Below are positions 2,410 through 12,114 of a DNA stretch of 12,500 bases, piece after piece. Source of the stretch: a virus; UHGV virus genome UHGV-1789045; one strand, written 5' to 3'. Under the pieces are notes generated by a model that had not been told where the DNA came from, ran no database searches, and saw only the letters and a program-made list of their open reading frames with translations. Both the position numbers and the translations under genes were made by a program. Positions within the stretch are counted from its first letter, which is position 1; each line of letters opens with the position of its first letter.

Positions 2410-3117
2410 TTATGCCGCCTGTTTTAGTTCGTTAACTCTGATGTTCATTACCTGAACGCATTTAGCCTGCGCCTCCTCGTTGCCAGCCATTAATTGCCAG
2501 TCACGCTGATAACGCTCGATGAGTTTTTTCTTGTCAGTTTCTGTTGACGCATAATCGCTGAAGTCTTTCAGGATTTGTTCGCAGTCAACCGATGGAGATT
2601 TCTGGTTGGTATTTTCTGGTGATGGTTTGTTATCTGATGCTGGGATTGCCCATCCCGGAAGCGATGGAGGGAGCCAGTAAAATCCTGTTCCATCTTTCAG
2701 TTTTGCCCTGTGCCATCCCTGCTTTTTATCGAGAGATGTTTGTGCGAAACCTTCCTCAAGGTTATACAGATACCGACCGATTCCCCATTGAACGGCAGCA
2801 CGCTTCATTGCACCGGAACGACCACCTTTGACGGCTTCTACCTGCGTGTTTTCAGCAGCATCCCATTTGGTTACCCATTCGGAATCAATCTTGATTGATA
2901 TGCCGCATTCAACTCCGCCGTTGTTGGGAATATCGCGGTATTCATTGCGCCATCCTGCTTTGCCGCAAACATCGTCCAGGCGTTTCATGATTGCCCGGTT
3001 CGTGACATAAGCCAGCACCATAGCCCACACTTTGCCATCGCGTGTTTTACCGCTTTGCTGTATTCGCCATTCGATATCTTCAGGGCTGAATGGCTCATCG
3101 AATTTGTTCAAATCCAT
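2410..3117 (-). CDS. single-strand annealing recombinase, Rad52-family core with Erf-like C-terminal tail
   Basis: 235-aa ORF immediately upstream of ssb. The segment GKVWAMVLAYVTNRAIMKRLDDVCGKAGWRNEY fits the Rad52/Sak-type SSAP motif. The C-terminal tail ...YASTETDKKKLIERYQRDWQLMAGNEEAQAKCVQVMNIRVNELKQAA resembles my recollection of the P22 Erf C-terminus (memory only). Confidence 0.7.
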   Translation of the reverse strand: MDLNKFDEPFSPEDIEWRIQQSGKTRDGKVWAMVLAYVTNRAIMKRLDDVCGKAGWRNEYRDIPNNGGVECGISIKIDSEWVTKWDAAENTQVEAVKGGRSGAMKRAAVQWGIGRYLYNLEEGFAQTSLDKKQGWHRAKLKDGTGFYWLPPSLPGWAIPASDNKPSPENTNQKSPSVDCEQILKDFSDYASTETDKKKLIERYQRDWQLMAGNEEAQAKCVQVMNIRVNELKQAA

Positions 3118-3125
3118 AATTCACC

Positions 3126-3296
3126 TCAGAATGGACACGGCCCAAGGAAATAACGCTGATTTAATACTTCGACTCGGGACAAATTAAGGCATACCCGCAT
3201 TCCTTCGCGGTCACCATTATGGCGATACCAGAGAGCTTTCTGCGTGTACATGCGTCTCTGTAACTTGCTCTCCTTCACTGTGGTTGCAAGTGACAT
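3126..3296 (-). CDS. small hypothetical protein, 56 aa
   Basis: ATG at 3296..3294 preceded by a strong RBS (AAGGAG, 6-nt spacer). Translation MSLATTVKESKLQRRMYTQKALWYRHNGDREGMRVCLNLSRVEVLNQRYFLGPCPF. Overlaps the next ORF (3220..3375) in another frame, so only one of the two may be real. Confidence 0.3.
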   Translation of the reverse strand: MSLATTVKESKLQRRMYTQKALWYRHNGDREGMRVCLNLSRVEVLNQRYFLGPCPF

Positions 3297-3375
3297 GAAT
3301 ATCTCCTTCGTTACCGATTAAATCTTTCATCTGACGAATGAATTCTTCGTCTGACCAGTTATCTGTAAAACTCAT
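3220..3375 (-). CDS. small hypothetical acidic protein, 51 aa
   Basis: ATG 3375..3373 overlaps the stop of the Kil-like ORF in an ATGA arrangement, suggesting translational coupling. Translation MSFTDNWSDEEFIRQMKDLIGNEGDIHVTCNHSEGEQVTETHVHAESSLVSP. Weak RBS; overlaps ORF 3126..3296. Confidence 0.3.
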
Positions 3376-3494
3376 TTCCTGCGATACCACGGAAGGTTGA
3401 TGGCTGATTTCATCGCTTTATTTGCTTCAAGCCACATTTTTGAATCACCAATAAATCTGGCTATTACTGCTTTGTTTTGTGCTGCACGAAGCAT
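3372..3494 (-). CDS. Kil-like small protein, 40 aa (host-killing / FtsZ-inhibitor candidate)
   Basis: ATG 3494..3492. Translation MLRAAQNKAVIARFIGDSKMWLEANKAMKSAINLPWYRRK. Sits between cIII and the recombination genes, where lambda has kil. The FIGDxKM segment resembles what I recall of lambda Kil (memory only). No clear Shine-Dalgarno. Confidence 0.35.
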   Translation of the reverse strand: MLRAAQNKAVIARFIGDSKMWLEANKAMKSAINLPWYRRK

Positions 3495-3508
3495 CTGGTG
3501 ATTGATGG

Positions 3509-3643
3509 CTATTTCATTGCGCATAACGCCTCCAGTTGTTTCTTTGCTGCTCTGATTAATTGTTTAACTCGGCGTGATAATTCAGATTCGTGCGGGTAGA
3601 AAGCGGACATGACGCCGCTACCCGCGAACTGAAAGTGCATCAT
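3509..3643 (-). CDS. cIII: cIII-like protease-inhibitor peptide, 44 aa
   Basis: The track ORF 3509..3748 runs through a terminator hairpin. The internal start at 3643 has GGAG 6 nt upstream. Product MMHFQFAGSGVMSAFYPHESELSRRVKQLIRAAKKQLEALCAMK has a central amphipathic helix like lambda CIII (PSESLLERITRKLR...). Position after N and tL1 matches lambda. Confidence 0.55.
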   Translation of the reverse strand: MMHFQFAGSGVMSAFYPHESELSRRVKQLIRAAKKQLEALCAMK

Positions 3644-3708
3644 GGGTAACTCCTTCTGTTTGATTGCATAACGAAAACGCCTCAATTGAAGCGTTATTGG
3701 TATGCATA

Positions 3709-3733
3709 TAAAAAAGCCCTCACATTGGAGGGC
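3709..3733 (-). terminator. intrinsic terminator of the leftward operon (tL1-like)
   Basis: Plus strand aaaaaa-GCCCTC-acattg-GAGGGC (stem 3716-3721 / 3728-3733). On the minus strand this is a 6-bp GC-rich hairpin followed by a U-run. Lies between the 83-aa gene and the cIII-like gene. Confidence 0.5.
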
Positions 3734-3869
3734 AAAGAAGATTTCCAATAATCAGAACAAGTCGGCTCCTGTTTAGTTACGAGCGACATTGCTCCGTGTA
3801 TTCACTCGTTGGAATGAATACACAGTGCAGTGTTTATTCTTTTTTTTATGCCAAAAATAAAGGCCACTA

Positions 3870-4121
3870 TCAGGCAGCTTTGTTGTAAATGTTGCAGGTA
3901 TCAAGTAAGTAATTAGATGGAGCGCCATAAATTATGAATTCATCGTTTGTCGGGTCCATCTCCATCTCTTGGCCTATTGCCATTCTTGCGTCAGTGTCAT
4001 CAGAGGCGAAGCATAAAACAGCCCACGCACCCATTGTTTTAAACAGAACTGCAATTGGCTGTGGTTTTACTGAATTTGCGTTAGCGCGAAAATCACAAAT
4101 CGCACTTTCATGAAACTCCAT
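3870..4121 (-). CDS. hypothetical protein, 83 aa, immediately downstream of N
   Basis: Minus-strand ORF with RBS GAGGTGAG upstream of ATG 4121; starts 8 nt after the N stop. Product MEFHESAICDFRANANSVKPQPIAVLFKTMGAWAVLCF...NIYNKAA. Occupies the slot lambda uses for ral/sieB. Confidence 0.6.
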   Translation of the reverse strand: MEFHESAICDFRANANSVKPQPIAVLFKTMGAWAVLCFASDDTDARMAIGQEMEMDPTNDEFIIYGAPSNYLLDTCNIYNKAA

Positions 4122-9699: not shown

Positions 9700-9915
9700 A
9701 TGAGTACGATAGCTGAGCTTGTCAGGGCTAATTTTCGTGAAGAGTTGGTGCGTTGGTATCGGTATCGTTCATCGTCCAGTTTGCCGATTGATGAGTTGTA
9801 TGAGCATTCACCTGCTGCACGACGCTATCCGCGTGACCGTGTTCTTCGACGGTTGTCCAAACTCAACAATGAGTTTCAGCGCAACAGAATTATTCGGAGT
9901 CTGGATTTAAAGTAA
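9700..9915 (+). CDS. hypothetical basic protein, 71 aa
   Basis: ORF with GGAGG 7 nt upstream of ATG 9700. Arg-rich (RRYPRDRVLRRL...RNRIIR). No family recognised. Confidence 0.5.
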   Translation: MSTIAELVRANFREELVRWYRYRSSSSLPIDELYEHSPAARRYPRDRVLRRLSKLNNEFQRNRIIRSLDLK

Positions 9916-9925
9916 AGGAGTGAGC

Positions 9926-10132
9926 ATGACAAATCAGCAGCAAATAGAGTTCATCCTTGAGCAGATTAGAAAAATGCGAGAAAAGAACCAGCCAGACATG
10001 ATGGAAATATGGAGACGCCAGCAGGAAGAATACCGCAAGCATATTTTTGGTGAGAGAAAACAGGATGACTGGAGCCTATATGGCTATGGCACCAGGACAA
10101 ATAAAAACGGATATAGCCTTTACACATATTGA
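9926..10132 (+). CDS. hypothetical protein, 68 aa
   Basis: The track starts at GTG 9920. ATG 9926 has AAGGAG 5 nt upstream. Product MTNQQQIEFILEQIRKMREKNQPDMMEIWRRQQEEYRKHIFGERKQDDWSLYGYGTRTNKNGYSLYTY. Confidence 0.5.
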   Translation: MTNQQQIEFILEQIRKMREKNQPDMMEIWRRQQEEYRKHIFGERKQDDWSLYGYGTRTNKNGYSLYTY

Positions 10133-10551: not shown

Positions 10552-10730
10552 GACGACAGCGACGAAGTATCACCGACATAATCTGCGAAAACTGCAAATA
10601 CCTTCCAACGAAACGCTCCAGAAATAAACGCAAGCCAATCCCAAAAGAATCTGACGTAAAAACCTTCAACTACACGGCTCACCTGTGGGATATCCGGTGG
10701 CTTAGAGAACGTGCGAGGAAAACAAGGTGA
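10548..10730 (+). CDS. ninE: NinE-like small basic protein, 60 aa
   Basis: ATG 10548 overlaps the ninB stop (ATGA). Product [60 protein letters not shown]. Size and position between ninB and ninF match lambda ninE. Identity is from memory. Confidence 0.5.
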
Positions 10731-10897
10731 TTGACCAAAATCGAAGTTACGAACAAGAAAGCGTCGAGCGAGCTTTAACGTGCGCTAACTGCGGCCAGAA
10801 GCTGCATGTGCTGGAAGTTCACGTGTGTGAGCACTGCTGTGCAGAACTGATGAGCGATCCGAATAGCTCAATGTACGAGGAAGAAGACGATGAATGA
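10727..10897 (+). CDS. ninF: NinF-like small Cys-rich protein, 56 aa
   Basis: GTG 10727 overlaps the preceding stop. Product (M)[55 protein letters not shown], which I recall as near-identical to lambda NinF. Below the ORF-track cutoff. Confidence 0.6.
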
Positions 10898-11357
10898 GTT
10901 AATAAATGGCAATGCCATCAAAATGACAAGCATTGAAATCGCTGAGTTGGTTGGTAAGCGTCATGACAATGTGAAACGTACCATAATAAAAAACGGGATA
11001 AAGCACGATATTAAATATGAATATTATGAAAATAATCTAGGATTCAAAGTTAAGCGAGAGGTTTTTGTTGTTGATGCTGATGTTGCTAACGTGTTTAAGC
11101 ATCAGAGAATAGCATTAAATAGATGTGCTGAAACAATAGCATTAACCACCATCGAACAATTACAAGGAGTTAAATTAATAAGGCAATATCAGGTTTTAGA
11201 TAAATACCGCATAGATGGCTATGATACTGTAAACAATATCGCCTATGAAATAGACGAGGAACAACATTTTGCGCCTCAGCATATGGACGCGGATCGCATT
11301 CGCGAGGAAGAGATAAAATCGGCGTTATGTTGTAAGTTTGTGCGCATTCGCGTTTAA
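10890..11357 (+). CDS. Rha-type phage regulatory N-domain fused to a Vsr/DUF559-like (PD-(D/E)xK-type) nuclease-like C-domain
   Basis: 155 aa. N-terminus ...IKMTSIEIAELVGKRHDNVKRTI fits the Rha/antirepressor N-domain signature. C-terminus IDGYDTVNNIAYEIDEEQHFAPQHMDADRIREEEIKSALCCKFVRIRV fits the D...EIDxxQH...D..R...L...F.RI pattern of Vsr/DUF559 endonuclease-like domains. The gene is markedly AT-rich compared with its flanks. Confidence 0.65.
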   Translation: MNELINGNAIKMTSIEIAELVGKRHDNVKRTIIKNGIKHDIKYEYYENNLGFKVKREVFVVDADVANVFKHQRIALNRCAETIALTTIEQLQGVKLIRQYQVLDKYRIDGYDTVNNIAYEIDEEQHFAPQHMDADRIREEEIKSALCCKFVRIRV

Positions 11358-11388
11358 GCGAATACAATTTGCAAACCGGAGAATAGCA

Positions 11389-12114
11389 ATGAGTAATTTA
11401 ATTTGTTTTGATTCCGTTAAGATGTCCAGTATCGAAATTGCCGAACTGGTAGAAAGCCGCCATAGCAATGTAAAAGTATCCATAGATAGATTGGTGAAAC
11501 GTGGCGTTATCAAGCCTCCTGCATTGCAGCACACTAACATAATCAATGATTTATGTGTTATTACCGGGAGGCGTGATTTCTACGTCTTCGAAGGCGAACA
11601 AGGTAAGCGAGATAGTATTGTTGTTGTTGCCCAGTTGTCGCCAGAGTTCACCGCTCGTCTTGTTGACCGTTGGCGAGAGCTTGAAGAAGCTGCGGTTAAT
11701 ATCCCAAAAACGCTACCAGAAGCGTTGCGCCTTGCTGCTGACCTTGCTGAGCAGAAAATGCAACTGGAAAACCAGCTCGCAATTGCCGCACCTAAAGTTG
11801 AGTTTGCCGATCGCGTTGGCGAGGCCAGCGGAATTTTGATTGGAAACTTTGCAAAGGTTGTTGGAATTGGTCCAAACAAACTGTTTGCGTGGATGCGCGA
11901 TCACAAAATCCTTATTGCTTCAGGTTCCCGGCGCAATGTGCCAATGCAGGAATATATGGAGCGCGGCTATTTCACAGTGAAAGAAACAGCGGTCAACACA
12001 AATCACGGAATACAGATATCGTTCACCACAAAAATCACCGGGCGTGGTCAACAGTGGCTGACCAGAAAGCTGCTCGATAACGGAATGTTGAAAGTAACCG
12101 GGGAGGCTGCTTAA
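11389..12114 (+). CDS. antirepressor-like protein: Rha-type N-domain + KilA-C/ANT C-domain
   Basis: The track ORF starts at 11338. ATG 11389 (RBS GGAG) gives MSNLICFDSVKMSSIEIAELVESRHSNVKVSI..., matching the N-domain of the preceding gene register for register. C-terminal region IAAPKVEFADRV...GNFAKVVGIGPNKLFAWMRDHKIL...MQEYMERGYFTVKET fits the KilA-C/ANT antirepressor domain. Confidence 0.7.
   Translation: MSNLICFDSVKMSSIEIAELVESRHSNVKVSIDRLVKRGVIKPPALQHTNIINDLCVITGRRDFYVFEGEQGKRDSIVVVAQLSPEFTARLVDRWRELEEAAVNIPKTLPEALRLAADLAEQKMQLENQLAIAAPKVEFADRVGEASGILIGNFAKVVGIGPNKLFAWMRDHKILIASGSRRNVPMQEYMERGYFTVKETAVNTNHGIQISFTTKITGRGQQWLTRKLLDNGMLKVTGEAA

Follow-up and report, generated by a model that had tools for sequence, protein, structure and literature searches.

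The stretch of DNA analysed here, 12,500 nucleotides (nt) of the UHGV virus genome UHGV-1789045 (the window), carries an intact open reading frame (ORF) of 155 amino acids (aa) between the genes ninF and roi. Our results indicate that this ORF is probably a free-standing, recombinant homing-endonuclease-type gene of the Vsr/DUF559 (EDxHD-like) clade. As judged from sequence comparison, the gene is a chimera: its N-terminus is literally the 5′ end of a roi allele, and the remainder belongs to a family of predicted nucleases. The initial annotation had offered three functions for the ORF, namely a homing-endonuclease-like selfish element, a phage-versus-phage weapon and a defence or anti-defence effector. 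The first of these has the most support in the alignments, because the insertion is polymorphic in two unrelated phage groups and the same nuclease module is elsewhere fused to NUMOD3 and to homing-endonuclease repeats. Enzymes of this class are known; the family itself, though widespread, is uncharacterised. The unusual detail is that the insert both fuses to the gene it invades and repairs it.

Chimeric junctions between ninF and roi

In phages HK022, HK97, mEpX1, HK620 and hundreds more, ninF is followed directly by roi, and these nuclease-less phages align to the window to the left and right of a gap of about 0.5 kb. Over its first 95 nt (the left arm), the ORF is 98–100% identical to the roi 5′ end in more than 200 phage records. 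Identity to HK620 ends after this arm, the first mismatch being at 10985, and this coincides with a drop in G+C content. At the protein level, residues 1–32, including both helices of the helix-turn-helix (HTH), are Roi residues, and from residue 33 onwards the protein belongs to the nuclease's own family, whose nearest non-chimeric relatives are 70–74% identical. The comparison with prophages lacking the gene, proposed initially as a way to bound the insertion, places the foreign block at 10985–11446; it is absent from the four phages named above and from others.

The G+C content in 200-nt intervals is 31–37% at 10900–11300, as compared to 45–50% on either side. Specifically, the body of the ORF (10985–11357) has 35.7% G+C, ninB–ninF 48.8% and the remainder of roi 47.6%. 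The body is the G+C minimum of the whole 12.5 kb; only 1% of 373-nt intervals are equally low, and all of them lie here. The gene is thus AT-richer than its flanks, as had been noted from the sequence at the outset. Recent horizontal acquisition, also proposed at that time, would apply to the AT-rich foreign block but not to the first 95 nt, which are roi sequence. The right-hand neighbour had been taken for a rusA-side gene; it is in fact roi (ATG at 11389), followed by ybcO.

The foreign block extends beyond the stop codon of the nuclease gene. It continues with an insert-borne spacer that shares conservation with the spacers of phage mEp044 and locus L008; phages without the nuclease have no such spacer, and their roi starts inside ninF. 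Codons 1–19 of roi (MSNLICFDSVKMSSIEIAE) are derived from the insert as well: they are a diverged copy of the usual start in which nearly all synonymous sites are changed, and identity to the HK022-type roi resumes only from 11447. Judging by these junctions, the insert brings a replacement 5′ end and roi stays full length. The stop, spacer and roi-like start of the block are homologous to the corresponding arrangement of the otherwise unrelated phage mEp044 and mEp044-like prophages, and in mEp044-type loci a Bro-N::nuclease (203 aa) or a Rha::nuclease (145 aa) lies 33 nt upstream of a Roi-like gene. The order nuclease, spacer, roi is found again in L014. At the other end of the ORF, the ninF stop overlaps its ATG (ATGAATGA, 10890–10897), so that the two genes are predicted to be translationally coupled; in HK022 and HK620 the same 8-nt overlap links ninF and roi. 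Around the ORF, promoter and terminator signals did not exceed chance, and no repeats were found at the insert ends beyond the homologous HTH segments.

In two further copies, L004 and L005 (the latter from E. coli VTB97022v), the RefSeq annotation made by the Prokaryotic Genome Annotation Pipeline (PGAP) has at 2406–2501, equivalent to 10890–10985 of the window, a 96-nt stub named 'Rha family pseudogene, missing C-terminus'. The intact ORF continues for another 370 nt, which are unannotated there.

The roi gene itself varies at this locus. The HK620-type and HK022-type alleles were compared using window positions 11447–11580, HK620 (L006, 1595–1690) and HK022 (L007). They are about 97% identical outside codons ~21–63, which encode the recognition helix and the wing; within these codons the alleles are unrelated at the DNA level, forming a sharply bounded variable cassette. 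In E. coli VTB97022v (2905–3926, corresponding to 11389–11750 of the window) roi is reduced to a 79-aa Rha-head stub, and 15 nt past it begins a complete gene that combines an ORF6N head with the same KilAC/ANT tail, a second replacement of a DNA-binding head at the roi locus.

The DNA-binding head and the nuclease domain

A search of 5.8 billion proteins returned 461 relatives of the 155-aa protein, mostly of 145–166 aa, and 98 of them were aligned. The N-terminal signature on which a Rha-type domain had first been proposed is present as S14-IEIAELVGKRHDNVKR-T31, with SIEIAELVGKRHDNVKR at residues 14–30, and 96 of the 98 aligned relatives match Rha. As a single sequence, the protein matches Phage_pRha (PF09669) at residues 12–35 with an expectation value (E) of 4.7e-5, which is under the Pfam gathering score (24.3 vs a cut-off of 29.9 bits), and only positions 1–24 of the 91 in the profile are aligned. 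The TIGR02681 score is 19.2 against a cut-off of 45.95. On these scores the protein has the HTH and wing of the Rha family, not the whole family domain, and by cut-off it is not a Rha-family regulator.

The AlphaFold model built on the relatives' alignment has a mean predicted local distance difference test (pLDDT) score of 85. It consists of a winged HTH at residues 11–62 (pLDDT at least 90), one long helix at 63–92 and a three-strand, helix, strand unit at 97–154. In the model, this unit together with the end of the long helix is the classical PD-(D/E)xK core, i.e. the alpha-beta-beta-beta-alpha-beta core of restriction-endonuclease-like folds, and it superposes on the cores of Vsr, NGO0050 and I-Bth0305I. 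The 155-aa protein therefore joins a modular DNA-binding domain to a nuclease domain, which is the arrangement of homing endonucleases.

The C-terminal motifs are Y119-EIDEEQH-126, D135..R138 and F150-V-R-I153. DUF559 (PF04480) matches residues 89–138 of the single sequence with E 0.004, at 17.4 bits vs a cut-off of 20.6; among the 98 aligned relatives DUF559 is matched by 85 and REase_MTES_1575 by 64. A wider search, made with the C-terminal domain only against 1.84 billion representative proteins, gave 844 clusters, of which 139 were typed for their N-terminal partners; 72 of these 139 match DUF559 (best E 1e-7). In the 98 close relatives D109, E120, D122, E123 and H126 never vary and the conservation of D135 is 90% or more; across the 139 distant clusters all six are invariant or nearly so. 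The window copy retains every one of them.

Catalytic positions were mapped by hidden Markov model (HMM) alignment to PvuRts1I and 3hrl together with published residue roles. The broad profile of the 139 clusters found borderline matches to PvuRts1I (E 0.012) and 3hrl (E 0.023) among the sequences of the PDB, and both alignments bring the EIDExxH motif and the D..R helix into register. With the close-family profile, the same sequences gave chance matches only. In the alignment to AbaSI, a homologue of PvuRts1I, positions D109/E120/D122/E123/H126 correspond to D61/E72/D74/E75/H78. Substitutions D61A, E75A and H78A of AbaSI kill cleavage and D74A weakens it (PMC4081097). In I-Bth0305I the same positions of the family correspond to the EDxHD positions, namely D196, an extra acidic residue, N208, H213 and D222 (PMC3239194). 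Moreover, PADLOC matches residues 109–155 to the nuclease core of mREase_II, a model of a methyl-directed restriction enzyme. This nuclease-core match is the only one that PADLOC returned, and a role as a component of a defence system was rejected.

The sequence data thus support the view that the C-terminal domain is a PD-(D/E)xK nuclease of the Vsr/DUF559 clade, with predicted activity. This is what the initial annotation had expected from the C-terminal pattern. A missing nuclease fold or missing catalytic residues would have spoken against it, and both are retained.

Relatives show how freely the module is combined. Among the members listed of the 844 clusters the nuclease is C-terminal. 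Its N-terminal partners in the 139 typed clusters are Rha (37), Bro-N (11), NUMOD3 (8), the homing endonuclease associated repeat (5) and, more rarely, AntA (3), KilA-N (3), ORF6N (1) and an I-HmuI NUMOD-like domain (1). A Rha head on the nuclease in 145–166 aa is the norm among hundreds of relatives. A Foldseek comparison against viral models found many proteins consisting of a DNA-binding domain and DUF559, several of them annotated as homing endonucleases. One protein, P0155 (1628 aa, nine matched stretches), was considered as a tandem array of nucleases and rejected: it has scattered matches to unrelated Pfam families and no clean domain, and is probably repetitive or low-complexity sequence. 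We found no literature on a Rha-DUF559 protein. The architecture was not known as characterised to the initial annotation, and a Rha head on a Vsr-like nuclease is indeed undescribed, but the protein belongs to the widespread and described Vsr-like/EDxHD class and is less novel than had been supposed.

The T4-like phage pEJ01, a Krischvirus, encodes a full-length homologue of 41% identity in its gene 32–frd slot, close to an HNH-AP2 gene. Among 64 Krischvirus-like phages only pEJ01 has it in this slot, which is the position of segG in T4. In the same slot phage kvi has a small ORF, and Phi1 (L030, 1192–2574) has ORF240, a 460-aa 'endonuclease' with CapR and DUF4379 zinc-finger domains in which Pfam recognised no nuclease domain at E ≤ 0.001. 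CapR and the closely related DUF723/DUF4397 zinc fingers are DNA-binding heads of T5orf172 homing endonucleases according to Barth et al. (PMC10055350).

The genomic neighbours were compared by a search with HMMs of both domains, and these statistics rest on about 16 locus types. In 6 of them an immediate neighbour on the same strand is a Rha-headed gene, which lies downstream in the window and in mEp044, L008 and L014, and upstream in L015/16 and L025. This is far above rough chance (p 2e-5 to 3e-3 for assumed neighbour frequencies of 4–10%) and fits targeting of, or recombination through, the shared HTH-coding sequence.

Other nuclease genes also occur at these loci. In mEp044-like metagenomic phages (L011–L013, 1102–2919) a gene for a 605-aa HNH_3 protein with a long coiled-coil tail shares a variable slot with a 163-aa Rha::nuclease gene and lies directly upstream of it; the replication initiator and the DnaB helicase flank this slot. 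Lambdoid relatives have HNH genes elsewhere in the nin region. The closest nuclease-less prophage, that of E. coli ET650 (L029, 10460–10987), has a 175-aa HNH_3 gene between ninB and the dam methylase, and strain AST20 has an HNH gene beside ninF. It seems that the nin region collects several kinds of nuclease gene.

Coordinates of the 155-aa ORF, its parts and the adjoining genes in the window
Feature	Position	Strand	Remarks
155-aa ORF	10890..11357	+	candidate free-standing homing-type endonuclease: Rha-type winged HTH, long linker helix, Vsr/DUF559-like nuclease
Left arm	10890..10984	+	roi 5′ end (codons 1–32, both HTH helices) of the HK620/Gally/H-19B/Shiga toxin (Stx)-phage allele
Winged HTH, residues 11–62	10920..11075	+	strand, helices 14–21 and 25–34, beta-hairpin wing 40–62
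Nuclease module, residues 78–155	11121..11354	+	end of long helix, three strands, helix, strand
Candidate active site	D109 (11214–11216), E120 (11247–11249), E123 (11256–11258), H126 (11265–11267)	+	
Further candidate active-site residues			E81/E89, D122, D135, R138 of the 155-aa protein
Foreign AT-rich block	10985..11446	+	nuclease body, stop, spacer, diverged roi codons 1–19
Spacer	11358..11388	+	31 nt, insert-borne; Shine-Dalgarno GGAG (11378–11381) for roi
ninF	10727..10897	+	Pfam NinF, E 1.7e-12
roi	11389..12114	+	241 aa, Rha N-domain and KilAC/ANT domain; Pfam ANT, E 1.3e-32; PHROG 63

By its ORFs and Pfam matches, the window covers the early genes and the nin region of a lambdoid prophage of E. 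coli. The upstream genes are those for anti-RecBCD, Rad52-like and SSB proteins, repressor/cro/cII, a replication protein and a toprim primase-helicase, after which the order is NinB, NinE, NinF, the 155-aa ORF (with ATG start and the stop TAA at 11355–11357), Roi and YbcO. Two small ORFs lie between the primase-helicase and ninB: that at 9700–9915 encodes a DUF7301 protein (E 6e-25) and that at 9920–10132 has no family match.

Spread of the insert and its possible origin

Of 5426 complete E. coli genomes, 5 have the AT-rich part (10985–11385), and the same five have the spacer and diverged roi 5′ end (11340–11450), which is strictly linked to the nuclease; the ninF–roi 5′ junction sequence is in 604. 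The nuclease gene is also missing from 429 related phage records. It is therefore far from being a conserved core gene of the lineage; core status is what the initial annotation would have taken as refuting its idea. A G+C content equal to that of the flanks and a C-terminal domain without nuclease fold or catalytic residues would have refuted it as well, and none of the three conditions is borne out. Insertions of this family are thus polymorphic for presence and absence at a fixed site both at ninF–roi (5 vs 604) and at gene 32–frd (1/64).

The examined copies have identical junctions in at least three different nin-region mosaics, with dam and ninX upstream in one copy and a truncated roi followed by the ORF6N-KilAC gene downstream in another. 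Between copies the ORF diverges at 0.9–1.1% of sites and the flanks at 3.3–3.7% (Fisher p 0.0035), which suggests that the block is younger than its surroundings. The cluster at 90% identity contains 56 sequences, and hundreds of contigs from E. coli, Salmonella and E. ruysiae carry them; databases label them either 'hypothetical protein' or 'Rha family transcriptional regulator'. For the C-terminal domain the ratio of non-synonymous to synonymous divergence (dN/dS) is 0.10 in comparison with L008, 0.28 with L011, 0.17 with mEp044 and 0.19 with L026, and synonymous divergence is unsaturated. Measured in this way, the nuclease family is under purifying selection and the gene is a real one.

A staggered recombination would account for both junctions. 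The donor, which is hypothetical, would be an mEp044-type phage with a tandem of Rha-head::Vsr-like nuclease, spacer and roi-like gene, and the recipient a lambdoid phage with ninF–roi. The exchange, a double crossover or the repair of a double-strand break, would be in staggered register: on the left, roi would pair with the Rha-type HTH region of the nuclease gene at the shared KRHDNVKR segment, and on the right with the HTH region in the roi-like gene of the donor. Its product would be ninF, roi codons 1–32 fused to the nuclease body, a spacer with a Shine-Dalgarno sequence, and donor roi codons 1–19 fused to the recipient roi. Nothing would be lost in this exchange: roi would remain full length, and the nuclease would inherit the translationally coupled start of roi.

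Once in place, the nuclease gene would be transcribed with the nin region. The winged HTH may bind a specific site, with the long helix as a linker, and D109, E120-x-D122-E123, H126 and D135 with Mg2+ may cut DNA close to that site, the protein probably acting as a dimer. In a cell with a related phage lacking the gene, the cut would fall in or next to roi, and repair from the nuclease-bearing genome would copy the gene and short flanks. Since a 95-nt roi stub is kept, the target should span position 95/96 of the HK620-type roi or lie just 3′ of it. The segment 3′ of nt 95 of the HK620-type allele is missing from the window genome, and we infer that the target segment may be codons ~21–63, where the HK620- and HK022-type alleles differ.

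Several points weigh against reading the ORF as a homing-type gene. E. coli Vsr has no alignable similarity to the family profile (hhalign probability 0.4%); its sequence is too distant, so the link rests on the DUF559 matches and the fold. I-Bth0305I (3r3p) was not retrieved from the PDB sequences by either family profile at E up to 10, so the relation to it is at the level of fold and active site only. Site-specific cleavage, the target site and biased inheritance are putative for the whole nuclease family. All lambdoid copies share one pair of junctions, which means a single origin followed by spread, and a single chimeric block could also spread by the mosaic recombination that is usual among lambdoid phages, without any action of the nuclease. 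The exact copy of roi nt 1–95 retained at the insert means that a target wholly inside it would lead to self-cleavage. A Rha-headed neighbour is present in only ~6/16 locus types, so roi is not a universal partner. Finally, relative to the common variant, the window copy has the substitutions P101Q, P113T and G147C, the latter two at conserved positions. The codon changes are CCG>CAG (codon 101, 11191), CCT>ACT (codon 113, 11226) and GGT>TGT (codon 147, 11328), all of them non-synonymous C>A or G>T transversions. The exact window protein is on 3 contigs and the common variant on 152. The window copy may be impaired, which would fit decay after spread; three changes prove nothing.

A bolder form of the homing hypothesis, which we regard as doubtful, is that the nuclease invades the gene of a DNA-binding protein through its own HTH region, takes over its start codon and recognition helices and delivers a spare 5′ end, and that the head identical to HK620/Stx-type Roi directs cleavage to the rival roi alleles of lambdoid and Stx phages. 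If this is true, invasion with a spare 5′ end would be a protein-level alternative to introns, inteins and gene fracture. It would also help to explain why roi alleles differ precisely in the segment of the recognition helix and wing (codons ~21–63).

The same identity of residues 1–32 can be read in another way, namely that the gene is a domesticated weapon against competing phages or satellites. Here the Roi helices would direct the nuclease to the Roi sites of competing lambdoid and Stx phages, which would be destroyed and not copied. Roi reportedly has a binding site within the roi gene itself. In the window genome the resident roi has a different, HK022-type recognition segment, and the nuclease module swaps heads (Rha, Bro-N, AntA) at one locus within one phage lineage. 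There is also a precedent in Odn, a nuclease derived from a homing endonuclease with a DNA-binding domain taken from the replication protein of its target (PMC10055350). We still consider this explanation unlikely. The wing residues 33–62 are not Roi-like, so the specificity need not equal that of Roi, and staggered homologous repair alone gives the chimeric junction without selection for specificity. The gene is rare (<1% of sites), unlike what is predicted for a strongly beneficial weapon, and PADLOC matched no defence system beyond the nuclease core.

It is quite improbable that the ORF is a functionless recombination scar, in which a roi stub came by accident to be in frame with a decaying foreign gene. 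PGAP, it is true, calls only 10890–10985, and calls it a pseudogene; dN/dS between the window and L004 is ~0.75 (4 changes), the window copy is substituted at two conserved positions, and the 90% cluster includes truncated members of 88 aa. However, the ORF is in frame across the junction in the window and in two aligned copies, and most of the listed cluster members have 155 aa. All catalytic positions are retained, the fused domain is modelled confidently by AlphaFold, hundreds of relatives have a Rha head and nuclease in 145–166 aa as the standard form, and the ORF is more conserved than its flanks. Equally improbable is a small Rha/Roi-like DNA-binding regulator that might antagonise or mimic Roi, with the Vsr-like domain used for dimerisation or nucleic-acid binding as in RAP-domain proteins: the acidic and histidine active-site set is invariant over 139 distant clusters, whereas non-catalytic derivatives usually lose it, and the fusion of the module to NUMOD3 and homing-endonuclease repeats points to cleavage.

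Significance and comparison with known systems

If the ORF is a homing-type gene, a compact (~150 aa) uncharacterised type with a Rha, Bro-N or AntA head on a Vsr-like nuclease joins the repertoire of homing endonucleases, and it spans temperate lambdoid phages, relatives of Stx phages and T4-like phages. It would also offer a concrete and testable case in which a gene of this type enters a coding region and leaves it unharmed. Our results suggest that exchange driven by nucleases, beyond passive mosaicism, shapes the nin region and the variable recognition segment of roi. In practical terms, database entries that give a 96-nt pseudogene stub, or the name 'Rha family transcriptional regulator', which describes the head only, should be corrected. 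Small bipartite nucleases with swappable heads are possible scaffolds for engineering.

The Vsr-like ('EDxHD') homing endonucleases include I-Bth0305I, from the recA group I intron of Bacillus phage 0305phi8-36, the free-standing Vsr-like genes of 'fractured gene' systems and Hef of T-even phages (PMC3239194, PMC2677866). A NUMOD joined to a Vsr-like domain is a described architecture of these enzymes, and some relatives of the 155-aa protein have it; no NUMOD was found in the window protein itself. The 155-aa family differs in having a Rha-type winged HTH (or Bro-N, AntA or KilA-N) as its head instead of NUMOD repeats and in its much smaller size of 145–166 aa. Moreover, there is no intron, intein or split host gene here; the insert supplies a substitute 5′ end. 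Since it has no sequence-level homology to I-Bth0305I, we do not file the 155-aa protein in the EDxHD family of Taylor et al. (2011) in the narrow sense.

Most members of DUF559 (PF04480), such as NGO0050 (3hrl), are found in bacteria as separate proteins of unknown role or as parts of larger ones. Vsr (1cw0) nicks T:G mismatches as a housekeeping enzyme; its zinc site and its intercalating tryptophans were not identified in the 155-aa protein, and the two proteins have no alignable similarity. PvuRts1I and AbaSI share with the 155-aa protein the E-I-D-E-x-(x)-H motif and the D..R helix (profile E 0.012). They are, however, restriction enzymes dependent on 5-hydroxymethylcytosine in which an N-terminal nuclease is fused to an SRA-like domain, so that domain order, partner and biology all differ.

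Odn of phage ICP1 resembles the 155-aa gene in being a homing-type nuclease whose DNA-binding part was recombined from the protein of another element, which here would be Roi codons 1–32. The enzymes themselves are different: Odn has a T5orf172, GIY-YIG-like nuclease and a captured RepA_N domain, and its anti-satellite role has been shown experimentally, whereas the 155-aa gene is known from sequence. As to SegG and the other free-standing seg and mob genes of T4, the parallel lies in the location of the Krischvirus homologue in the variable gene 32–frd slot. The Seg proteins are GIY-YIG and the Mob proteins HNH enzymes, unlike the Vsr-like family to which the 155-aa protein belongs.

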